Positions 3,053 through 63,448 of a stretch of DNA of 64,000 nt are shown here, in pieces. Location of the stretch: positions 51,274,001-51,338,000 of the forward strand of contig NC_135821.1 of the NCBI RefSeq assembly GCF_964213995.1, given 5' to 3'. This stretch comes from Mustelus asterias. Lineage: Eukaryota. The first letter of the stretch is position 1. Each line of letters starts with the position of its first letter. Made by a program: the position numbers and the translations under genes. Below the pieces are notes generated by a model. That model did not search any database. It was not told where the DNA came from and was given only the letters and a program-made list of their open reading frames with translations.

Positions 3053-3426
3053 GGGATAGCTGGCGCAATGTCATTCCCAGGTATGTATCAAGTGATCATG
3101 CACCACATTGTGAAATGTCATGTGGTCCGAGCATCATATGATCAAACCTCAAGTAAATGCCACCAACCAGTTTAGCAACTCTGTTGAAATCAGCATTAAA
3201 GTGATTTTGCTGATATTAACCACACCCAGAATCATTAAAAAGAAAAATACTGCCGGTTTGTTGAGCAAAACATTTGATAAAACTGACAAACGCCCTTTTC
3301 AGTTTAAATTTGTGACATTTTTTGATGTCTTATCAACACTATTATAATCACCGCTCAGTGAATATTAACTTTCACCACTAACTCATTCATAACATTTTCT
3401 GGGATTTACAAGTTCTTCTTTGTTAC

Positions 3427-3782
3427 CTGGCTCCGGATTTCCGAAACACCTCTGCCCACTGATCCGGATCAAAGAACTCTGCGGTGAACTCCGGGGCGAA
3501 CTGGCTGTATGTGAACCCCTCTGGGTAGTTCTTTTTCATGAAGTCCACATACTCCAGTTGATGCAACTCTCGCAAATTCCACCAGAACCACTCGTTGCCG
3601 AAGCTGGGCACGGAAAAGACACCCCAGTGGATGAAAATCCCAAATTTACCCTCGTCGTACCAGGCGGGCAGGGGTCTGCTGTCCAGACTCTTCCAGTCCG
3701 GCTGGTAGCGGCGAACGGGAGCAACACCCGGCCATAAAATCCCAGTTATACAAACACAACTGACAAAACTCTCCCAGCCCAT
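3427..3782 (-). CDS. FUCA1: Alpha-L-fucosidase tandem paralog (copy B), exon 1; remainder lies left of the window
   Basis: 356 nt, open frame, ATG 3782-3780, donor AG|GTAACA; 347/356 nt identical to copy A exon 1; intron 1 and upstream DNA are collinear with copy A. Confidence 0.93.
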
Positions 3783-3915
3783 ACTCAGCAGCTAGCGCTC
3801 CCTGCAGTAGCTAATGCGGAAATTGTCCCTCACGTTACTTCTTCCTTAAAGGCTAGGCTTGCAATGGTACAGGAAATGTTTAGCAGTAGAATTCCCTTGT
3901 TTATTTTCAAACGCC
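3783..3915 (-). promoter_or_regulatory. 5'UTR/proximal promoter of FUCA1 copy B
   Basis: Aligns with 36792-36924 upstream of copy A; interrupted at ~3918 by a TIR element. Confidence 0.55.
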
Positions 3916-3917
3916 TA

Positions 3918-5247
3918 GGGGGCGATCTTACCAGAATTTGGCAGAGTGTGGGTTCCTGGGGGTGAATCCTGCCAATGGCTCTGGTGTAATTTCTGATCGG
4001 ATTTAAGCCCCATTGACAAAACTTTTTACGGCCACGAGAATCACACGACACCCTCTGCGGCTTCCCTCTGATTCGCCCGCCACGGCTCCACTTAATCGCA
4101 CCAATCGTTGGGGAGCTGCATATAAATGGCTCGCCAGCACTTGTTCCCCAGCGACTGCTGTCGGCGGGAATGGCGGTGCTGCGCTTTGTGAGCTGGGTAC
4201 TGCTATGGCTTGTATTGAAAGACGTGCCTACATTCTTGGTGTTTGGTGTTCGAAAGGGTTAACCTGCATCCCCAGACTAGATCTAGCTCTGGCTATTAAA
4301 CTGGCATGCTGGATTCCTCAAGGTATCGTCAGTTAGTCGCCCTGCCAACAACATCTATCTTGACCAGACACAGCTGAATCCCGAGAGGTCTGCAATTAGC
4401 TTTTGAACCAATTCCCTAGAGGCCACTCTCATCCTTTGGGGTCTTCAATGCTGTGCACTTAAGCAGCTTTGCATGAGAACAATCAACGCACTCTCACTGC
4501 TGGACTTAAGAGTCAGATTTCACTGAGAAGTGGATTTAAACCCTTCTGCCCTCGCACTATTAGAGAGTGAGGGTTGTAGGTTTCATTGCATTGGTCCTCC
4601 CGCAAGTGAGAGGGTCTTTATGTCTCAGCCCCGGCCCCAAGCTACATTTGTGTGCATCCCCAGCAAAAAGATACAAAATTCTGAGGACATGTCCCAACTG
4701 ACTCAAGAACAGCTTCTTCCCTGCTGCCATCAGACTACACAATAGCTATGACTGTAACACTACATTCTGCACTCTCTTCTTTCCTTCTCTATGTACAGTA
4801 TGCTTTTTCTGTATGGCACGCAAGAAACAATACTTTTCATTGTATACTAATACATGTGACAATAATAAATCAAATCAAATCCGCATTCTCCCTGGTGCCC
4901 CTTGCGTGTTGGGCTGCCCGGGAAGTAATGACCACCTGAGCGCTGACCTCCAATATCCCCCTCGGAGGTGACAGTACCAGGTTCACACTTATGTAGAGCT
5001 GTTGTAAATGGTGCCGATGTGTCGTCATGCCAGCGCCAGCTGAATATTTGATGCAGATTCAATATTCGGAGTAAGTGCTCGCTCATGATATGCTGATGGC
5101 ATGTTCCATATCACTCTGCTGGTGAGGCTAGCTCGAATCGGAAAACCTGATGTTGCCGGCGAGAATCACATTTTTGCAAACTCTCCTCATTTTGAGCCCA
5201 CATCGCCAGCCCCTCGGACAACAAACATTGGCTCAAGATCCCACCCC
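3918..5247. mobile_element. Non-autonomous TIR DNA element (Harbinger/PIF-like) with nested inserts
   Basis: Ends GGGGGCGATCTT / AAGATCCCACCCC; TA-containing target duplicated; the empty site is visible in copy A at ~36925. Confidence 0.8.
4640..4881 (+). mobile_element. Rex1/Babar-like LINE 3' end
   Basis: LKNSFFPAAIR remnant and (AAATC)n tail; the same tail occurs at ~2270-2330, 36209-36429 and ~51845-51960. Confidence 0.7.
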
Positions 5248-17128: not shown

Positions 17129-17269
17129 TTATGAAACTCCTTCGAGTTTCACTGTCCAACCATTTTCCGATGGGAGATTGAACGGAGAAATAGGGGACAA
17201 GTAGATGAGGATTCCCTGCCCTGGAGAACTCTTCCATTTCAGAGGATCAGGAATTCCCAGCATCGTCAC
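17129..17269 (-). CDS. FUCA1: FUCA1 copy A exon 8 (coding part, stop TAA)
   Basis: tctcttcag|; 141 nt; [46 protein letters not shown]; the 8 exons sum to 1365 nt = 454 aa + stop. Confidence 0.96.
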
Positions 17270-22018: not shown

Positions 22019-22118
22019 TTTGGTGTTTGGTGAGGTCTTCGGAGATTCCAGATCTAGGAGATCATCACTGGGCCACTTAATGAACACCGCATAAACTGAA
22101 GATCCCTTACTAGTGTAC
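22019..22118 (-). CDS. FUCA1: FUCA1 copy A exon 7
   Basis: gcctccag| ... |gtaagt; 100 nt; YTSKGSSVYAVFIKWPSDDLLDLESPKTSPNTK. Confidence 0.96.
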
Positions 22119-24013: not shown

Positions 24014-24201
24014 CATATGTCTGTAGAGTTTTCCTTCTGCACTCGCCATGGCTTTGATGCATATATTGCTTCACCATTAACATTTAACCATTGTCCAATG
24101 GCCTCCAGCCTTTCTTGGAAAATGACAGGGATAGTGCCTTCTTTGGTCGGACCAATATTAAGCAGCAAGTTGCCTCCAAAAGACACAGCGTCCATCAAAT
24201 T
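24014..24201 (-). CDS. FUCA1: FUCA1 copy A exon 6
   Basis: cttcgacag| ... |gtaaag; 188 nt; [55 protein letters not shown]. Confidence 0.97.
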
Positions 24202-25042: not shown

Positions 25043-25243
25043 ACTGATAATGGATGGCACATCCAATACTTCACTCAAGTGCATGTTTCTGCGATATCCC
25101 CATGACTGTTTGTCGACTGTGGTGCATTTCTCCCACTTGTGGTTTTGAAGCTTGGTGGGGCTGTATTTGTCTGCGCAGTTGAAGAATCCGCCATGTTTAC
25201 AGGAACAACCAGCTCCCCAACGATCATTGGTTACCACAGTATC
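25043..25243 (-). CDS. FUCA1: FUCA1 copy A exon 5
   Basis: ccttttgctag| ... |gtacgt; 201 nt; [27 protein letters not shown]...[17 protein letters not shown]; the NCxDK motif resembles FUCA1 rather than FUCA2. Confidence 0.97.
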
Positions 25244-27840: not shown

Positions 27841-27946
27841 CTTGACAGGGCTATCGTTGTAAAGCCAGGCCAGAAATCCAGTGGAGTTCCAGTAGGTATC
27901 TGGTGCTTCCCAGTCTCCATCTGACCAGATGATATCTGGTTTATAC
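27841..27946 (-). CDS. FUCA1: FUCA1 copy A exon 4 (catalytic nucleophile Asp in IWSDG)
   Basis: ccccaccag| ... |gtactt; 106 nt; [35 protein letters not shown]. Confidence 0.97.
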
Positions 27947-29221: not shown

Positions 29222-29359
29222 CTCATGACCAACTCGTACAGCTCTGGTAATGTTTTCTCCACAACAAATTTCTGGGTCTTGAAATGGTTCTGTTTATCAT
29301 GCAGGTAGAGAGGATGAAACCACTCAAAGAGAGAATGGTACACTCCGTAAGTCAAATTC
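29222..29359 (-). CDS. FUCA1: FUCA1 copy A exon 3
   Basis: gcaacag| ... |gtaatg; 138 nt; [45 protein letters not shown]. Confidence 0.97.
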
Positions 29360-31853: not shown

Positions 31854-31988
31854 CGTTTTCGAACTGCGACTCCCAGGTCACCCACCAAGTCTCGATGAGG
31901 ACCCGTGTCAATTGAGTTCCAGTTCCAGGACACGGATGATCCCCAGTTTGTGAATCCTTCATGGTGTTTGCTTGTCAGAACCACATAC
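31854..31988 (-). CDS. FUCA1: FUCA1 copy A exon 2
   Basis: ttgtgctttcag| ... |gtttgt; 135 nt; [44 protein letters not shown] (GH29 KHHEGF motif). Confidence 0.97.
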
Positions 31989-35852: not shown

Positions 35853-36172
35853 ACGGCACAGTAGCACAGTGGTTAGCACTGCTCCAGGGTTCGATTCCCG
35901 GCTTGGGTCACTGAGTGTCTGGAGTTTGCACGTTTTCCCCGTGTCTGCGTGGGTTTCCTCCGGGTGCTCCAGTTTCCTCCCACAGTCCAAAGATGTGGGG
36001 GTTAGGTTGATTGGTCATGCTAAATTGCCCCCTAGTGTCCCAGGATGCATTGGTTAAAGGGATTAGTGGGTAAATATGTAGGGATATGGGGATAGGGCCT
36101 GGGTGGGATTGTTGGTGCAGACTCGATAGGCTGAATGGCCTCCTTCTGCACTGTAGGGGTTCTATGATTCTA
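35853..36172 (+). mobile_element. HE1 SINE
   Basis: Head, core and tail; absent from copy B. Confidence 0.92.
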
Positions 36173-36208
36173 CTTGTTCATAGCATTTTCTGAGTTTAGA
36201 CGTTCTTC

Positions 36209-36429
36209 AGCAGCTTCTCCCCTGCTGCCATCAGGCTTTTGAATGGACCTACCTTTATATGAGGTTGGTCTTTCGCTATACCCTAGTTATGACAATAACA
36301 CTACATTCTGCACCCTTTCCTTTCCTCTCCTTCTCCCCTAGGTACCCTATGCTTTGTCTGTATAGCGGGCAAGAACAATACTTTTCACTGTATACCAATA
36401 CATGTGACAACAATATATCAAATCAAATC
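36209..36429 (+). mobile_element. Rex1/Babar-like LINE 3' end abutting the FUCA1-A exon 1 donor
   Basis: SFSPAAIRLLN remnant and AAATCAAATC tail; absent from copy B. Confidence 0.8.
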
Positions 36430-36435
36430 TTGTAC

Positions 36436-36791
36436 CTGGCTCCGGATTTCCGAAACACCTCTGCCCACTGATCCGGATCAAAGAACTCTGCGGTGAACTC
36501 CGGGGCGAACTGGCTGTATGTGAACCCCTCTGGGTAGTTCTTTTTCATGAAGTCCACATACTGGAGTCGATGCAAGGCTCGCCAGTTCCACCAGAACCAC
36601 TCGCTCCCGAAGCTGGGCACGGAAAAGACACCCCAGTGGATGAAAATCCCAAATTTACCCTCGTCGTACCAGGCGGGCAGGGGTCTGCTGTCCAGACTCT
36701 TCCAGTCCGGCTGGTAGCGGCGAACGGGAGCAACACCCGGCCATAAAATCCCAGTTATACAAACACAACTGACAAAACTCTCCCAGCCCAT
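36436..36791 (-). CDS. FUCA1: Alpha-L-fucosidase (GH29) copy A, exon 1 of 8
   Basis: ATG at 36791-36789; signal-peptide-like N-terminus, then [43 protein letters not shown]...[15 protein letters not shown]; donor AG|GTACAA; 356 nt, phase 2. Confidence 0.97.
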
Positions 36792-37148
36792 ACTCAGCAG
36801 CTAGCGCTCCCTGTAATAGCAAATGCGGAAATTGTCTCTTGCGTTACTTCCTCTTTAAAGGCTGGGCTTGCAATGGTACAGGAAATGTTTAGCAGTAGAA
36901 TTCCCTTGTTTACTTTCAAACTCCTGGTGTAACTATAAAGCACCCATCCCTAGACTTGCAATCCTTTTGACAGCGATTGTTATCGCCAGTGAATATTTGA
37001 AACGAATTATGATCGTCTGACAGAAATTAGCTTTAAAGTGGAACCGTCTTCCTCGGAGAGTGGGAAATCTTTTGAGATATTATTGTCATCCTAAATGATG
37101 CCATTTACAAGTAACACGGCGCTGTGTAAATAATTGTGTTATATGCTT
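36792..37148 (-). promoter_or_regulatory. 5'UTR/promoter region of FUCA1 copy A
   Basis: Conserved with copy B (3783-3917 plus 5250-5478); contains an ETS-type GGAAGT. Confidence 0.55.
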
Positions 37149-44010: not shown

Positions 44011-47000
44011 TGAGGGGAGTGATTTGAGGCCACAGTAAAAAGGGTAAGGGATCGACTTTTATTACTTACCTTTTCGCGGGGTTTCTTTGTTACTAACTTT
44101 AAGGGAAAAGCGGAAGTAGACCGGGCGCGGGGTGACCTGGGAAGAAAATTTGTTTTTTTTTTAAGCACGCGGGAGGTTTAAAAGCAGGCCGCACTATCCA
44201 GCAGGCAGCGTCGTTAGCGGGCAGCGGAGTGAGCAGGGAGCAGAGTGAGAGCTAAAGGGCTTTGGCTCATCGGGCTTTGGCGTAAACAGGCAGAGGCAGG
44301 GTAGGTACTGTTCTTCGTTCATCCAGTAATTTAAAGAAAGGGGTAATTATGAGTGGGAGGCCAATTTTTTTCTGTCGGTGTCGGATGGGGAGTTCATGGA
44401 GTCGCCTAGCCTCCCGGAAGTCCATATCTGCGCCAGGTGCGTCGAACTGCAGCTCCTGAGAGACCGCGTTAGGGAACTGGAGCTGCGGCTCGATGACCTT
44501 AGTCTAGTCAGGGAAAATGAGAATTTAATAGATAGAAGTTACAGGCAGGTCGTCACACCAGGGCCACGGGAGGAAGACACGTGGGTCACGGTTAGGAAGG
44601 GTAAAGGTCACGTACCAGAGAGTACCCCGGTGGTTGTCCCCCTTAACAGTAAGGGATGGGTGTCAGACCGGAGAGAGGAGGGGAGAGAGCAGTCAGTGAT
44701 GGTAGAGGTTGTCCCCCTCCAAAATAAGTATACCATTTTGGATACTGTGGGGGGGGATGATCCTCCAGGGGTAAGCCACGGTGACCAGGTCACTGGCACG
44801 GAATCGGGCTCTGTGGCTCAGAAGGGAATGAGAGGAACCAGGAGAGCAATAGTAGTGGCAGATGAAATAGTTAGAGGCACAGACAGGCGGTTCTGTGGGC
44901 GTGAACGAGACTCCAGGATGGTAGTCTGCCTCCCTGGTGCCGGGGTCCTGGATGTCTCTGAGCGGGTAGGAAGCATCCTAAAAAAGGCGGGTAACCAGAC
45001 AGACGTCATTGTCCACATTGGTGCAAATGACATAGGCAGAAAGAGCAGGGAGGTCCTGCGAGAGCAATTCAGGGAGTTGGGTAGTAGGCTAAAAAGCAGG
45101 GCCTCTCGAGTAGCAATATCTGGACTACTCCCAGTGCCACAAGCTAGTGAGGCTAGGAACAGGGAAACTTCACAGCTGAACGCGTGGCTAAAGGACTGTG
45201 CAAGAGGGGGGGTTTCGAATTCGTGGATCACTGGGAAGTCTTCATGAGAAGATGGCACCTGTACAAGAAGGACAGGTTGCACCTAAACTGGAGGGGCACG
45301 AATATCCTAGCTGGGAGTTTTGCTAGTGTGGTTCGGGTGGGTTTAAACTAATGTGGCAGGAGGGTGGGGATCAGAACAATAGGTCAATAAGCATAGAGGC
45401 TGGGGACGAGGTTGGGGCCAAGACAAGGCTATCGAAGAGGAAGAGCATTCTGGGGGAGGATGACCTCAGTGGGCCTGGAGGTCTGGAGTGCATCTGCTTC
45501 AATGCAAGGAGCGTCACAGGCAAGACAGACGAGCTTAAAGCCTTAATGCTTGCGCGGAACTTGGATGTGGTTGCAGTGACGGAGACTTGGTTCAAAGGAC
45601 AGGACTGGCAGCTGAATATTCCGGGGCACAAGTGTTTTAGGCGAGACAGAGGAGGGGCGAGGAGAGGTGGGGGAGTAGCAATGCTGGTTAGAGAACATAT
45701 TACAGCGGTACAGAGGGTGGACAATATGGAAGGGTCAGGTAACGAGTCACTGTGGGTGGAGCTCAGAAACAGGAAGGGCGCAGTCACTATGCTGAGGGTA
45801 CACTACAGGCCTCCCAACAGCCCACGGGAAGTTGAGGAACGGATATGTAAGGAGATTCTGGACAGGTGCAGAAAAAATAGGGTTGTTGTCATGGGAGACT
45901 TTAATTTCCCTTGTATAGACTGGAAATTGCTTAGGGCTGGGGGCCTGGACGGGGAAGAATTTATAAAATGCATACAGGAAGGTTCTTTGGAACAATATGT
46001 TGACAGTCCAACTAGAGAGGGGGCTATACTGGACCTAGTACTGGGGAATGAGCCCGGTCAGGTCATCAAAGTTGCAGTAGGGGAACATGTGGCAAATAGT
46101 GACCACAATTCTGTAAACTTTAGGATAGTAATGGAAAAAGATGAGTGTTGTCCTATGGTGCTGAATTGGGGGAAGGCTAACTACAGCCGGATTAGGCAGG
46201 ATTTGGTGGCTGTTGATTGGGAGAGGCTGTTCGAGGGTAAATCCACATCTGGCATGTGGGAGTCTTTTAAGGAGCAGTTGATAGGACTGCAGGACAGGCA
46301 TGTGCCTGTAAAGAGGAAGGATAGGAAAGGTAGGATTTGAGAGCCAGTGAAATTGTGGGTCCAATCAAAAAGAAGAGGCATACATGAGGTCCAGGCAGCT
46401 AAAAACAGATGGAGCACTGGAGGAATACAGAGAAAGTAAAAAAAAACTCAAACAGGGACCTGGAAGGGCAAAAAGGGGTCACAAAATGTCCTTGGCAGAC
46501 AGGATTAAGGAGAATCCTAAGGCATTTTATACATACGTTAGGAACAAGAGGGTTGTTAGGGAAAGAATCGGACCTCTCGGGGACAAAGGAGGGGAATTAT
46601 GCTTAGAACCAAAGGAAGTAGGTGAGATCCTAAACGAGTACTTTGCATCAATATTCACAAAGGAGGGGGACATGTTGACTGGTATTGTCTCAGAGAGGTG
46701 TGTTGACCCGTTAGAAAAAATCTCAATTACAAGGGAGGAAGTGTTATGTTTTTTAGGAAACATTAAGACAGACAAATCCCCAGGGCCAGATGGCATCTAT
46801 CCTAGATTCCTCAGGGAGGCGAGAGATGCAATTGCTGGGTCGCTAACAGAAATCTTTGTCTCTTCACTGGACACAGGTGAGGTCCCAGAGGATTGGAGGA
46901 TAGCAAATGTGGTCCCGTTATTTAAGAAGGGTAGCAAGGATAACCCGGGTAATTATAGGCCGGTGAGCTTGACGTCCGTGGTAGGGAAGTTGTTGGAGAA

Positions 47001-48316
47001 GATTCTTAGAGATGGGATATATGCGCATTTAGAACTGAATAATCTCATTAGCGATAGACAGCATGGTTTTTTACGAGGGAGGTCATGCCTCACAAATTTG
47101 GTTGAGTTTTTTGAGGTGACAAAAACGATTGACGAGGGAAGTGCCGCGGATGTCGTCTATATGGATTTTAGTAAAGCGTTTGACAAGGTCCCTCATGGCA
47201 GGCTGGTGCAAAAGGTTAAATCTCACGGGATAAAAGGTGAGCTAGCTAGATGGGTGGAGAACTGGCTTAGCCATAGAAGACAGAGGGTAGCAGTGGAGGG
47301 GTCTTTTTCCAGTTGGAGGTCTGTGACTAGTGGTGTTCCGCAGGGCTCTGTACTGGGACCTCTGCTGTTTGTGATATATATAAATGATTTGGAGGAAAAT
47401 GTAACTGGTGTGATCAGTACGTTTTCGGACGACACGAAGATTGCTGGAGTTGCGGATAGTGATGAACATTGTCAGAGAATACAGCAGGATATAGATAGGC
47501 TGGAACATTGGGCAGAGAAATGGCAGATGGAATTTAATCCAGACAAATGCGAAGTGATGCATTTCGGTAGATCTAATGTAAGGGGGAGCTATACAATAAA
47601 TGGCAGAACCATCAGGAATATAGACACACAGAGGGACCTGGGTGTACAAGTCCACAGATCCTTAAAGTTGGCAGCACAGGTGGAGAGGGTGGTGAAGAAG
47701 GCATATGGCATGCTTGCCTTTATTGGATGGGGCATAGAATATAAAAGTTGGCATATGATGTTGCAGCTGTATAGAACGATGGTTAGGCCACACTTGGAAT
47801 ACTGCATCCAGTTCTGGTCGCCACACTACCAGAAGGACGTGGAGGCTTTGGAGAGAGTACAGAGAAGGTTTATCAGGATGTTGCCTGGTATGGAGGGTCT
47901 TAGCCATGAGGTGGGATTGGGTAAACTGGGGTTGTTCTCCCTGGAAAGACGGAGGATGAGGGGCGACCTAATAGAGATGTATAAAATTCTGAAGGGCATA
48001 GATAGGGTGAACAGTGGGAAGCTTTTTCCCAGTCGGAGGTGACGAACACAATGGGTCACGGGTTCAAGGTGAGGGGGGCAAGGTTCAACACAGATGTCAG
48101 GGGGATGTATTTTACACAGAGGGTGGTGTAGGCCTGGAATGCACTGCCAAGCAAGGTGATTGAGGCGGACACGCTGGGATCGTTTAAGACTTATCTAGAT
48201 AGCCACATGAACAGACTGGGAATAGAGGGATACAAAAGAATGGTCTAATGGGCACTTGAGCGGCGCAGGCTTGGAGGGCCGAAGGGCCCGTTCCTGTGCT
48301 GTATTGTTCTTTGTTC
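44011..48316 (+). mobile_element. Near-full-length CR1 LINE (5'UTR, ORF1 esterase, ORF2 APE-RT), inactivated
   Basis: ORF1 ~44350-45350; APE CFNARS, VAVTETW, GDFN, SDH; RT PQGSVLGPLLF, FSDD; stop at 46338-46340 and frameshifts; TTCTTTGTTC tail. Confidence 0.96.
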
Positions 48317-55147: not shown

Positions 55148-55651
55148 CTTAGAAAAATGCAAATGTTCAGTACAATTATAAAAAAATTTAAGTATTTATA
55201 GTGTTCTAAATCTGCACATAACCAGATGAGAGAATGCAAATATAAAACTTATATTTTTAAAAAGCTGGTCAGCGGCATTTAACTTGTTGGTAATCTTGAA
55301 ATAAGGAAAATGCTGCTACATTTAAAACTGCACTCTCATCAAAATCTTTTGCACTTGTTCAATTCACACACAAAGAGACAATACTGTCTTCTTACCGTCT
55401 TCTCTCCTGTACATCTGAAATTTGCAATTAGACATCAATTAAAATGAGCAACAGTACCTGTCCAATTACTGAACTATTGAAATACCTACACACAACCAGA
55501 ACTTACACAGAATTGATCTGATATATTTGGGGATTACTGTCTGCACAATAAAGGGACGAGATAAAGCAGCTTTACTCAAGGAGACAAAAACATCCAGACA
55601 TTGAAACACCCTTCACTCCATTCCTAAATGAACAACATGCAACACTTTTAC

Positions 55652-56582
55652 CTGCACCTTCTCCACTCCAGTCACCCACAACTTCCAGAATTGTAGGCAT
55701 TGGAGGATACCAGTCTTCAGTCTTTCGACCTCTACCTCGAGGTTGCCGTATTGAGTCACCGTTTCTTCGTGGCAATGGCCAGTCTCTGGGCAAAGCATCT
55801 GGCTCATGTCTGAACTGATAACTCATATGAGGGACACTCAGTTCAGAATCCGATATTCTTTTCTCCTCAGCTTGGGAAACTGTGTTTATGTTTTCAGATG
55901 TTCTTGCATTCACACCAGAACCACACACACTACTGACTTTGAAAACAGAGAGTTCATGTGTTTCCTGATGTGCTCGATTATTGACAAAAGAGTTTGGCAG
56001 CTGATCTCTGGGAGAATGCTGAAGGTTTGTGACTGGCTGGTGAAAGTTGAGGTTTCGCCAAGAGTGCCCAACAATAGCCCCCAGATCTGTGTTTTTCTGA
56101 ACATGAACAGAGCTATTTTCCAAACCTCGGCTGCTGGTATACAGAGATGACATATCCCCGCATTTAGTCTCACCATTACTGGAATGGTTGAAGTATCTCT
56201 CTTTCTCACTGATGTCCAGAGAGGATTTGATGAAGCTTTTGCAAACACTGATCACATCAGTCATTTGCAAGTAGCTGGCAGCCGACATCACGTCAATCAC
56301 ATTTTGGCTTGTGAGGCTCAGCCTCCCTGAATATATGAACTCCAAAATAATGGTAAAGGCATCAGCAGAAAAGACGTCGAAAGTGGCTACTGTGGGCTGT
56401 CCCACATCCTGTGCGTTATGCAGGAGAAGCATCCGAAAGTAGCCACTGCTGGCAAACAAGACGTTACGATGACCTTTGAAGACTCTTCCCTCCACGATAA
56501 TGCTGCAGTCACAAAACATTTCTTGTCTGCGCTGTTCATTTAACTGTTGAAGCAAACGGGCTTGGTGAGAGGAGATCTCCAT
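55652..56582 (-). CDS. ZBTB8A: Zinc finger and BTB domain protein 8A, first coding exon (BTB/POZ plus linker)
   Basis: MEISSHQARLLQQLNEQRRQEMFCDCSIIVEGRVFKGHRNVLFASSGYF...VCKSFIKSSLDISEKE matches my recollection of the ZBTB8A N-terminus; acceptor cag| at 56612, donor CAG|GTAAAA; 931 coding nt. Confidence 0.94.
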
Positions 56583-57504
56583 TTTGAGAGCAGCCCCGCA
56601 GTGACCTCAGCCTGTTGTGAACATGAAGAACATCACTTTACTAATGATAAGTCCCAATCCATTCTCAGTAGCATTATAAAAAGTCTGTATTAGGCAATAA
56701 GGAAGAGTGATGTAAAAGGTAATACATTATACTTCATTTAAAATATATTAATACTAGGTTCTCAGAGTGATCATCTAAATTGCTTTGTAATAAATCTATA
56801 TGTGATGTACAATTCTTAGTTGATTCCTGTTCCTGATTATTTCCTATACTTTAACACTGTTGCTCAAGCCCAACCTTAAGCAAACATTCTAGTTCGAAAG
56901 CTCCCCAATAACATCACAAACAACAAACAGGATGTAGGCCTAATCATTTCCACCGAGTAGAACCAAGTAGTACTAAGGAGTGTTTTTGGATTGTGACTCT
57001 ACGGGTGACGCACAAACTAAGTTGCTTTTCTGAAAATACAAACTCCTCCACCACCACCAGCACTGCCCCCCAACCAAAACTTATAAATGTAGAATTTCAT
57101 ACATTTGAGTGTCAGCATCAAGTCAGCCATTTTATTTGCTGAATTCAAACCAAAAGATTAACTTACTGCATTCTTTCTCATCTCCAATCATGTGCTGTTT
57201 TTGAAATACACAAAGATGACCATGTGTCCATTAAATAAAACACATAATGGCCTGCAACTTCCAAGCTCCCTAGCGCTAGATTTGGGGGCACACTAAAGAT
57301 GCTCTGGGGGAACCCACCCTCCATGGAATGTCAAGCATAAAGTTTTGCACAGCAATTGCCTAGAAGTGCTAACTTGCTCTGGACAATTGCCCTGCACTGG
57401 GAAACATCCGAAAATGTGACTTAAATGGCTAACTTCAGATGGTTGCGACCATGTTGCACAAGTAGTTACCCAGAAAAAGTTAGAACAATTAAAATTTCTT
57501 CCAA

Positions 57505-60189: not shown

Positions 60190-61620
60190 ACTGCGACTGA
60201 GCGGATTGCGCGCGCAGTGTCGCTCATATATCCCGCCTATTCTCTATACTGGACTGTAATTGGGCAATTCAGATGCCAATCAAATGGCAACGAGCCAATG
60301 GATAACAATAGCCGGGACCCGCGCGATCCAATCCCACCCCCGCGGCTCAGAGAGAGCACGCGAGCAGCCCGGACCCAATCCCACCCCCGCGGCTCAGAGA
60401 GAGCACGCGAGCAGCCCGGACCCAATCCCACCCCCGCGGCTCAGGGAGCGCGCGAGCAGCCCGGACCCAATCCCGCCCCCGCGGCTTAAAGTGCGCGCGA
60501 GCAGCCCAGGACCCAATTCCGCCCCCGCGGCTCAGAGCGCGAGCAGCCCGGGACCCAATCCCACCCCCGCGGCTCAGAGAGCGCGCGCCAGCAGCCCGGA
60601 CCCAATCCCGCCCCCGCGGCACAGGGAGAGCGCGAGCAGCCCGGGACCCAATCCCACCCCCGCGGCTCAGAGAGCGCGCGCCAGCAGCCCGGACCCAATC
60701 CCACCTCCGCGGCACAGGGAGAGCGCGAGCAGCCCGGGACCCAATCCCACTCCCGCGGCTCAGAGAGCGCGCGCCAGCAGCCCGGACCCAATCCCGCCCC
60801 CGCGGCTCAGGGAGCGCGAGCAGCCCGGACCCAATCCCACCCCCGCGGCTCAGAGAGAGCGCAAGCAGCCCGGGACCCAATCCCGCCCCCGCGGCTCAGG
60901 GAGCGCGAGCAGCCCGGACCCAATCCCACCCCCGCGGCTCAGGGAGCGCGCGAGCAGCCCGGGACCCAATCCCACCCCCGCGGCTCAGAGCGCGCGCGAG
61001 TAGTCTGGATTCAACCGCCCGCGCTCGAGACCAACTGCCCACCATCAACAATCCGTCTGGCCACCAACTGTCCACCCCGCCCTGCCCATTCCGTCCATCC
61101 ATCCTCCCGCGCTGCCAACCACCTCACCCCACTCGACCGGCCCCGTTCTGCCCACCACCGCCACGCCGCCCGCCATCCACCCCACGCCGCCCGCCATCAA
61201 CCCTCCACCCGCCATCTCCTGTCCGCCCGTTCTTGGGACGAGCGCCAGCCCGAAACAAACGGCCCCGCGACGCGACGCCCCGCTGACTGAAACAGCCACC
61301 CCCCCCGGGGCCAGTCACCGCCGCGGTGGCAGCGGACCCTTGTTGCACAATCCCGGCCACTGCCGCCCGCTCCGTGCGGAGCCCCAGCCCCCGGTGCCGG
61401 GGGGGGGGGGGGGGAGGGGGTGACTGACACACTTTCCCCTCCCCGCGGGTCAGCGGTCCCGGGTGTTTTCCCCCCAGTGTTTCTGAGTGAATCTTTGCCG
61501 AAAGCCCGAACCCCTTTTTCCTTACCCGCCACCGACGCTGCACTCCGCCCGGCCCGACCCGGACGTGCTTTTTAACGCCCGGATTTACACCCGGAGGCAC
61601 TTAAAGGCGAAATCCACCAT
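60190..61620. promoter_or_regulatory. CpG island / ZBTB8A promoter region
   Basis: Only extended CpG-rich non-TE stretch in the window, 3.6-5 kb 5' of the ZBTB8A coding exon; contains GC boxes and CCAAT boxes. Confidence 0.8.
60328..61000. repeat. GC-rich minisatellite, 15 units of 42-47 bp
   Basis: Unit ~ CCAATCCC(A/G)CCCCCGCGGCTCAG(AG)nCGCGAGCAGCCCGGAC; CCAAT counted 15 times from 60328 to 60966. Confidence 0.97.
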
Positions 61621-61660: not shown

Positions 61661-61971
61661 CTGTGTTAGCTGCCTTTGAGCTTCCTGACTGCCGAGGTTG
61701 TCATTTTTTTTTTAAAGGTTTAATCTTGAGAACAGCCTCCCGCTATTTTCCATTGAGTTGCCCACACTCCCCAGGGTTGGTTTGACATTACAGGAGTAGC
61801 GGCTGTTATAGTTAGCATTTTGCAGCTAGCTTAGGGGACATTCTTATGTACATTTATCCAGTGGGGCTGTTAACAAGTAAAATACTATAAACTGATAAAA
61901 CAAAACCTCAGCACAAAGCTGGGGGAGGGTCTTGAGCTCCCTGCTGTAACGCCCAATTTCAAAATAGTTTA

Positions 61972-63448
61972 GGAGTGAATATTGGAAGAAATCGTTCACA
62001 AATTGTGGACTATTTGTATGATGCTGTGTATTAGGTTTCAAACCTTAAAAATACAGCACCAGGATGGGACTGAATAATGGTCAGAATAGAGCAAATTTAA
62101 TACATTCACATTGCAGGACAAGGTTGGGTTGTTCAAGCATTTTTAAAATCCATACAAGACAACTTTCATTCTATTCTCTTCATCAATCTTCTCTGTTACT
62201 TCCAAAAATTCGATCAGATAGGTCACGCCTTTAACAAATCCATTATTTAATTAATTCAAACCTCTTGTGTACCTGTTGTTTGTATTCCCCAATTATTATT
62301 TCCGAAACCTTATTCACCATGGATGTTAAACTGACTGGCCTGTAGTTACGAGGAATGTGTTTGCCCCCTCTCTCGGCATTCTCCATCCTCTACCACAGGG
62401 TTTTCTGCTGTGGGATACATCCAGAGGTTCCCAGGAATCCAGGATGTATAAAATTTTGAAAAATGCTATGAGGTAATCAGAAACTGGTTTCCTCCTGCAT
62501 TGGCTGCTGATAGGCTCACTAGCTAATCTTTTTGGTGGTTAACTATGTTCCTATGGCCCAGTTCCAGGCCCCTGCCTTGGCCAGAGGCTAAGTCCAGTTT
62601 GGTTAATGATGCATGCAAGGTTGGTTCAGGGCTGACCCAGTTCCCACCCATCCCCGGCTGTCCATGGTGCTCTTCCAGGGCTCTAACCGGGGAAAATCCA
62701 GTCCCTTACACAAGGGGAAGCGAGCCATGGCCAGGTGTCAGGCCGCCACTTTTCCACCGGCCGAAAAAAGGACAAAAATCTGAAGAAATTCGAGCCCAAA
62801 CAACTGTCCAGGCGGCAGCCCGGGTCGGTCTCCACAATCCTGGAAGCTCGAGCAGGCTTCTGGAATAGAAAGCCAATTTTCGATTTTCCACCTCCTTGGG
62901 AGTGAATATTGGAAGAAATCGTTCACAAATTGTGGACTATTTGTATGATACTGTGTATTAGGTTTCAAACCTAAAAAATACAGCACCAGGATGGTATTGA
63001 ATAATGGTCAGAATAAAGCAAATCTAATACATTCACATTGCAGGACAAGGTTGGGTTCTTCAAACTTTCTTAAAATCCATATAAAACAACATTCATTCTA
63101 TTCCCTTCATCAATCTTTGTTACTTCCAAAAATTCGATCAGATAGGTCACACCTTTAACAAGTCCATTATTTAATTCATTCAAACCTCTTGTGTACTTGT
63201 TGATTGTATTCTCCAATTAATGTTTCCGTAACCTTATCCACCATGGATGTTGAACTGACTAGTCTGTAGTTACGAGAAATGTGTTTGCCCCCTCTCTTGG
63301 CCATCATCTACCTCAGGGTTTTCTGCTGTGGGATACATCCAGAGGTTCCCGGGAGACCAGAGTGATGTATAAAATTTTGAAAAATGCTATGAGGTTGTAA
63401 TCAGAAACTTGTTTCCCCCTGATTTGGCTGCTAATAGGCTCACTAGCT
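61972..63448. repeat. ~550-bp direct duplication (61972-62524 and 62899-63448)
   Basis: Both copies run from GGAGTGAATATTGGAAGAAATCG to AGGCTCACTAGCT; roughly 90% similar by eye. Confidence 0.93.

Follow-up and report, generated by a model that had tools for sequence, protein, structure and literature searches.

Identical and diverged tracts in a tandem FUCA1 gene pair of the shark Mustelus asterias

The tandem FUCA1 genes and their surroundings

The window (the whole 64,000-nucleotide stretch of Mustelus asterias DNA that was analysed) and 150 kb of neighbouring DNA contain two complete, eight-exon FUCA1 genes arranged in tandem on the minus strand, and the two near-identical exons within the window are the starts of these genes. 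The upstream gene spans 36791-17129, and the downstream gene runs from 3782 to a point 11.9 kb left of the window. All introns of both copies are GT-AG, and the eight spliced exons translate exactly to the Mustelus asterias proteins XP_078093950.1 (upstream copy) and XP_078093949.1 (downstream copy). The exons are located as follows:

3427..3782, minus strand: first coding exon of the downstream copy, of the N63/L70/D176 type
G000:C21:51262111-51273740, left of the window, minus strand: exons 2-8 of the downstream copy
36436..36791, minus strand: first coding exon of the upstream copy, of the ancestral-like S63/W70/E176 type
31854..31988, minus strand: exon 2 of the upstream copy, with 3 silent differences at 33 silent sites, preceded by 63 identical intron bases
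29222..29359, minus strand: exon 3 of the upstream copy, unconverted, silent divergence 0.28
27841..27946, minus strand: exon 4 of the upstream copy, with the nucleophile D219 (human D225)
25043..25243, minus strand: exon 5 of the upstream copy, carrying D270, the acid/base (human D276), and largely unconverted, with silent divergence 0.29
24014..24201, minus strand: exon 6 of the upstream copy, the second inferred conversion tract, which reaches 28 bases into intron 6
22019..22118, minus strand: exon 7 of the upstream copy, C-terminal domain, unconverted
17129..17269, minus strand: exon 8 and stop codon of the upstream copy, unconverted

The identity of these genes as FUCA1, proposed in a first-pass annotation, is confirmed by their domains, fold and active-site residues, which place the predicted enzymes among the GH29A alpha-L-fucosidases. 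Both copies pass the Pfam cut-offs (Alpha_L_fucos, 446/453 bits; Fucosidase_C, 77/78 bits), and the fold comparison, made for the downstream copy only, returns human FucA1 7PLS as the top structure match (E 9e-64, TM 0.89). All 12 active-site residues (F50, H52, E64, W65, H127, H128, Y171, W217, D219, R253, D270 and W293; human FUCA1 numbering is shark numbering + 6) are the same in both copies, the set being the fucose-binding residues of Table 10 of PMC11796335. The equivalents of D219 and D270 are described as the nucleophile and the acid/base in animal FucA1 in the available text of PMC9548408. Similarly, human Glu70 and Trp71 (E64 and W65 here) are given in PMC11796335 as binding fucose O3 and O2/O3, respectively, in agreement with the earlier placement of this Glu-Trp pair at the fucose ring. 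Human FucA1, as presented in the available text of PMC9548408, thus has in common with the shark copies both Pfam domains, the fold and the 12 active-site residues with their Asp nucleophile and Asp acid/base; the shark genes, unlike the human enzyme, form a tandem pair of which the downstream member carries N63, L70, L175/D176 and F181 beside the pocket. The downstream copy also retains 4/4 N-glycosylation sequons and a full open frame. Both genes are intact. The copy labels of that annotation run in reverse of coordinate order, as its GSEW copy "A" is 36436-36791 and its GNEW copy "B" is 3427-3782.

Humans have one FUCA1 gene. The Mustelus genome has only two close copies, and the genome search found no third. 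A distant GH29 gene at G000:C15:3515191-3525007 (minus strand) has 51-66% identity and other exon borders, and is probably FUCA2. A false duplication of two haplotypes was considered as the origin of the pair and rejected, because the introns differ by 8-24% and carry different insertions.

Several other features are present around the FUCA1 pair. Upstream of it are two BTB-domain coding exons on the minus strand, one at 55572-56606, which matches PF00651, and the other at ~104163-105308, beyond the window's right end, which has a similar start; these exons look like a ZBTB8-type tandem pair. A LINE-like element at 44330-48042 (plus strand) has three frames, namely a GDSL/OSK-like ORF (weak), an endonuclease and a reverse transcriptase, and pieces related to this element are found in the introns of both FUCA1 copies. 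The right part of the window contains a GC-rich tandem repeat with ~90-base units and long open frames on both strands (60322-61024), as well as a local direct duplication of ~560 bases with 90% identity (61969-62524 / 62896-63448).

The exon-1 patch within a mosaic gene pair

Alignment of 3427-3782 with 36436-36791 bears out the first description of the two exons. Of the 356 aligned bases 347 are identical, and the 9 that differ are all confined to the 44 bases at 3554-3597 / 36563-36606 (P = 2e-7 for 9 uniformly placed differences spanning <=44 bases). The differing bases fall in 8 codons, three of them with silent changes (62, 69 and 76) and five with replacements, which are N63S, L70W, E72A, Q75R and E77Q (downstream/upstream copy). 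The identity also covers 22 bases 5' of the ATG, as the first-pass annotation had it, and 3 bases of intron 1. The patch, the tracts on either side of it and the sequences near their outer ends are as follows:

3554..3597, minus strand: unconverted patch of the downstream copy, codons 62-77 (pairwise alignment)
36563..36606, minus strand: patch of the upstream copy, codons 62-77 (pairwise alignment)
3598..3804, minus strand: 207-base tract identical to 36607-36813, comprising 22 upstream bases and codons 1-62; inferred conversion tract
3424..3553, minus strand: 130-base tract identical to 36433-36562, comprising the remainder of exon 1 and 3 intron bases; inferred conversion tract
35854..36433, no strand assigned: two dispersed repeats, inserted in the upstream copy 3 bases inside intron 1, which bound the 3' identical tract
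3917..5242, no strand assigned: ~1.3 kb present only upstream of the downstream copy, partly repeat-derived

The patch had been called hypervariable, a description that does not fit the rest of the gene pair. Patch divergence (20%) is similar to that of unconverted DNA, and 9 differences in 44 bases do not exceed the unconverted background when compared with the mean intron rate (P = 0.14) or the deep-intron rate (P = 0.59), the comparison with the rate of exons 3, 5, 7 and 8 giving P = 0.03. Within the patch, synonymous divergence (0.44, from 8 silent sites only) exceeds non-synonymous divergence (0.14). Furthermore, positions 75 and 77 vary freely among orthologues, and position 72 is also variable. 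Since 9/44 is ordinary for unconverted DNA, the patch represents surviving old divergence with no accelerated change. It is the identical flanks, rather than the patch, that are anomalous.

The coding sequences of the two copies differ at 75 of 1365 bases. Silent differences per silent sites amount to 0/62 in the exon-1 flanks and 3.5/8 in the patch, followed by 3/33, 7.5/27, 2/21 and 11.5/40 in exons 2, 3, 4 and 5, and by 0/42, 3/23 and 5/35 in exons 6, 7 and 8. Across the aligned intron blocks 906 of 6681 columns differ (14%), with divergence of 8-11% beside exons and 19-24% in deeper blocks. The deep blocks of intron 1 differ at 18-22% of aligned columns, deep introns have 0.21-0.30 differences per site between copies, and each copy has repeat insertions of its own, in line with the earlier claim of an old duplication with copy-specific transposable elements. 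At the mean intron rate, the absence of silent differences has P ~1e-4 in the exon-1 flanks and P ~2e-3 in exon 6, where a single replacement (316) is found. The longest identical coding run is 192 vs 85 expected (P = 0.0007, exons concatenated), and imperfect near-identical tracts are also present elsewhere in the pair.

Identical tracts that are far longer than paralogue divergence predicts, silent sites included, are the mark of interlocus gene conversion. Conversion very probably made these tracts, as their sequences suggest, and the 44-base patch would then be a remnant of old divergence fenced by two of them; on the homogenisation of the exon-1 flanks the first-pass annotation has held up. 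The fencing tracts end at copy-specific insertions or diverged upstream DNA. The 1.3-kb insertion ends the 5' homology 134 bases before the downstream ATG, and the intron-1 repeats of the upstream copy give 9 and 52 blast rows, counting themselves, in 214 kb. GC-biased conversion was considered and rejected; GC3 is 0.68-0.69 in exon 1 but 0.42 in exon 6, and there is therefore no general GC-biased pattern.

The patch is not exceptional within an otherwise homogenised gene, as exons 3, 5, 7 and 8 and most introns are unconverted. These four exons hold 28 of the 35 amino-acid differences between the copies, and the patch is not the sole protected region that it had been taken to be. In exon 3 the upstream copy has F175/E176/L181 and the downstream copy L175/D176/F181, and exon 5 differs at 256, 259, 290 and 291. 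Exons 7 and 8, far from the pocket, contain 17 of the 35 differences and are equally unconverted, so that unconverted sequence is not peculiar to the active site.

These findings bear on a neutral explanation of the mosaic, in which the patch is a gap between two independent tracts, mismatches in a tolerant loop block further conversion, the downstream copy is relaxed, and dosage or expression keeps both genes. Such an origin is quite possible, although we do not expect it. It accommodates patch divergence at the level of the unconverted background, the free variation of positions 75 and 77, the large unconverted regions away from the pocket, the termination of tracts at insertions, and the 1.3-kb insertion, which sets the upstream regions of the copies apart. 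In addition, local divergence in less constrained sequence can be a false positive, according to the available text of Osada and Innan (PMC2588116). The distribution of the amino-acid differences, described below, is less easily accommodated.

Related species and the age of the duplication

Contigs of four public runs, of which X11 reached the exon end only, were aligned to 36400-36587, an interval that takes in the 3' half of exon 1; no contig covering it showed the upstream patch type. The downstream-type N63/L70 letters are found in the runs of organisms A, B and C. In a contig of organism C exon 1 runs into exon 2 with downstream letters (L004 is matched without mismatch, the upstream copy with 1), and because this contig joins the two exons the downstream type is spliced in C. 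Organism B has both intron-1 types, which join one 90-base contig with A at 36495, a silent position of codon 99. Both Mustelus copies have G at this position and organisms B and C have A; we read this as a substitution that would have spread to both Mustelus copies after the split from B, on the strength of one site read from the ends of contigs, which drop variants. A replacing change, T91K (window 36520, codon 91), was also observed in organism B, in a downstream-type contig at a contig branch point.

The same reads address an assembly or polishing artefact, in which identical flanks were copied between loci during assembly. In its favour, run X3 is possibly the source sample, and its aligned contigs did not show the upstream patch. 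The independently built X3 contigs nevertheless contain no other letter over 36436-36562, and the downstream-copy contig ends 231 bases past 36582, equivalent to 36813, where identity ends. Organism B likewise has both intron-1 types on one shared flank. An artefact would also have to produce tracts of only 130-207 bases within well-diverged DNA, along with the imperfect near-identical tracts elsewhere in the gene, in a genome with just two close copies, and we consider it extremely improbable.

Several FUCA1 genes per genome are annotated in other elasmobranchs, including S. canicula (2), S. torazame (2), Carcharodon (3) and Cetorhinus (4), and also in Heptranchias and Amblyraja. In a 23-row protein tree the copies cluster by lineage with 95-100% support, and the skate and sevengill duplicates form separate clades. 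The Amblyraja radiata paralogues (P0031, P0118, P0119), which form a clade of their own, differ at 21-22 residues; 6 of these are within codons 69-76, in the loop that carries the Mustelus patch. A search of exon-1-sized shark protein fragments gave 1 match among 1069 candidates (E 1e-45, 66% identical), which is uninformative, and no further shark paralogues were found among the best 120 of 428 full-length search matches.

The first-pass annotation anticipated that the patch would group by paralogue. This expectation is consistent with the close relatives, where the downstream type is found in two related species (organisms B and C), and fails across shark orders, where the exon-1 patch does not sort by paralogue and the L175/D176 pair of exon 3 does. 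The codons of the Mustelus patch also vary between paralogues in lamniforms and skates, and in S. canicula one patch is common to both genes. When paralogue classes are defined by residue 176, D176 marks one class in Mustelus, S. canicula, Carcharodon and Cetorhinus, which represent two orders; this class also has L175 in 3/4 and, in part, F181 and R259/R291. Both S. torazame genes are of the E type, and F175/E176 is found in 15/15 apparently single-copy elasmobranch genes.

In exons 3, 5, 7 and 8 the Mustelus paralogues differ at 28/192 residues, as compared with 30-39 for Mustelus-lamniform orthologues, whereas in exons 1, 2, 4 and 6 the paralogues differ at 7/262 residues and the orthologues at 27-34. 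This pattern fits one old duplication followed by conversion. On sequence grounds we lean slightly towards a duplication of roughly the same age as the divergence of ground sharks from mackerel sharks; no usable shark substitution rate for dating it was found in the literature. Comparison of Mustelus with other sharks gives 2-3 paralogue-type sites vs 31-39 species-type sites, the latter bearing on conversion only if the duplication is shared between species. The Mustelus D copy is equidistant from the Carcharodon D and E copies in exons 3, 5, 7 and 8 (36 and 36), and all five between-lineage quartets have 0 cross-type sites. Given these site counts and D copies that are no closer overall, independent duplications with convergence are possible.

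Independent origins would mean separate duplications in houndsharks, catsharks, mackerel sharks and skates, recurrent F175L/E176D and R259 changes, and conversion in the houndshark pair only. The protein tree by lineage, with its separate skate and sevengill clades, is consistent with this scheme, as is the lack of excess similarity among D-class copies beyond a few sites, and one or two base substitutions suffice for each shared change. The scheme does not, however, account for unconverted Mustelus exons that are as distant as orthologues of different orders, for deep introns 0.21-0.30 per site apart or for the absence of cross-type sites from all five quartets, and it requires the same adjacent changes three times. 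It is therefore judged unlikely; if true, the pair would have another age and history, and selection on the same loops would still be implied.

Proposed selection on the pocket-side loops

The downstream copy alters three residues that are nearly invariant in a homologue set that includes isoforms and close relatives, namely W70 (present in 183/185 other homologues), S63 (180/185) and E176 (172/184). W70L is also seen in the FUCA1 records of rabbit and Bombina, and Leu is found at the equivalent Thermotoga position, so this change may be mild. Differences between the paralogues lie beside pocket residues at 63-77 (around E64/W65), 175-181 (after Y171), 256-259 (after R253) and 290-291 (before W293). 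In the catalytic domain, 8-13 of the 18 Mustelus paralogue differences are near the 12 active-site residues, as opposed to 12-31 of 95 orthologue differences, which is 2-4 times as often (P 0.0009-0.019 across four window sizes and five orthologue pairs). Pooled shark and skate pairs give P <0.05 in 16/16 enrichment tests; the variable-site background was taken without the isoform entries P0090 and P0101 and four non-elasmobranch rows, and a stricter test was made without the Rhinoraja-Leucoraja pair. Moreover, 9 difference sites are common to Mustelus and the lamniforms (P = 0.0015). One feature of the Teshima-Innan divergence-peak signature, a local peak inside homogenised flanks, is present within exon 1.

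The neutral explanation does not predict the active-site excess over orthologue differences, a comparison that already allows for tolerant loops, nor does it predict that near-invariant S63, W70 and E176 have changed, that these changes are shared with other species, or that 9 difference sites are common to Mustelus and lamniforms. The earlier view of the patch as specificity-determining is retained in part. N63 and L70 lie at near-invariant sites, but residues 72, 75 and 77 are variable, and the Glu-Trp pair and the rest of the active-site set are identical in both copies. In the structure model the patch has pLDDT 53-67 (low confidence).

Changes at conserved positions might also be expected from a decaying duplicate, a downstream copy impaired at conserved sites and mostly repaired by conversion. 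The downstream branch is indeed longer than the upstream one (0.064 vs 0.018), the rate asymmetry between copies being significant with 2/7 outgroups only, and near-invariant sites have changed. A decaying gene would not be expected to keep its open frame, canonical splice sites, complete active-site set and all of its sequons, or to have the same patch type in other species, where in one case it is spliced, and we regard decay as very unlikely.

The explanation that best fits these data, although we hold it with no more than even confidence, is a mosaic pair produced by repeated conversion of longer homologous stretches together with selection keeping the loop changes of the downstream copy. 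Interlocus gene conversion would have repeatedly overwritten longer homologous stretches and would have been favoured where exons keep long homology. Selection would have kept the downstream copy's changes in the loops beside the fucose-binding residues, and these changes are predicted to give the downstream enzyme a different substrate preference; the first-pass annotation had proposed a difference in substrate or pH preference. Conversions crossing codons 63-70, 175-181, 256-259 or 290-291 would erase this division of labour, and the chances that selection purged them for this reason appear evenly balanced. The predicted difference is most likely one of aglycone or linkage preference, rather than of catalysis itself. 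In AlfC, Y37 and W40 of the equivalent loop help form the second-sugar subsite (PMC7718225, available text), making an effect on linkage preference plausible, with its transfer to the shark enzyme inferred.

Similar patterns have been described in other gene pairs, and the comparisons that follow draw on the available text of each source. The primate red/green opsins, to which the Teshima and Innan model was applied (Fawcett and Innan 2011, PMC3924837), resemble the FUCA1 pair in their tandem arrangement tens of kb apart, their homogenised flanks and a divergence peak near ligand sites; the opsin peak consists of silent and replacement differences around ligand-near sites, as in the FUCA1 patch. 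The opsins differ in having proven functional sites and homogenised introns, whereas the FUCA1 introns are degraded, several regions are unconverted and the effect of the differing residues is a prediction from sequence. Leptodactylus frog ATP1A1 (Mohammadi et al., bioRxiv 10.1101/2020.08.04.234435) is likewise a tandem duplicate with a few paralogue-defining residues common to species and most sites grouping by species, but the frog case is proven by 12 residues, by sampling across the genus and by protein engineering, in contrast to 1-3 residues across shark orders for FUCA1. The Drosophila transporter pair CG18281/CG17637 (Osada and Innan 2008, PMC2588116) is also a sequence-based candidate with clustered paralogue-type sites among species-type sites; its test used nucleotide sequences of both copies from two species, as compared with partial DNA of relatives for FUCA1. 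No published report of a shark FUCA1 duplication, or of a FUCA1 tandem duplication with gene conversion, was found in a search of mostly open-access papers, and the elasmobranch fucosidase literature yielded unrelated papers only. The FUCA1 pair is a fresh example of a known conversion-versus-divergence pattern; what is claimed for the patch becomes narrower, and what is claimed for the gene family broader.

Little has been mapped of what determines substrate preference outside the fucose pocket of animal alpha-fucosidases. Two natural enzymes that share the same sequence over much of the catalytic domain and differ at 18 residues, 8-13 of these near active-site residues, provide a short list of candidates. 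If the pair reflects selection, a housekeeping lysosomal enzyme would be added to the few vertebrate cases of selection resisting gene conversion; if it is neutral, it would be a clear example of conversion tracts mimicking a protected patch. The expansions of FUCA1 in sharks and skates are not known to have been reported before. We tentatively propose, as a speculative extension that we think somewhat unlikely, that one ancient duplication is common to ground and mackerel sharks, that conversion has homogenised almost all sites, and that an L175/D176/F181/R259 signature at the pocket rim has been preserved by selection in one copy across both orders, with N63/L70 as a houndshark addition and a parallel expansion in skates. 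If this is true, the D copy would encode an additional fucosidase with a specialised role, acting for instance on dietary or mucosal fucoglycans, and the handful of residues that govern linkage preference in animal GH29 enzymes would have been singled out by concerted evolution.
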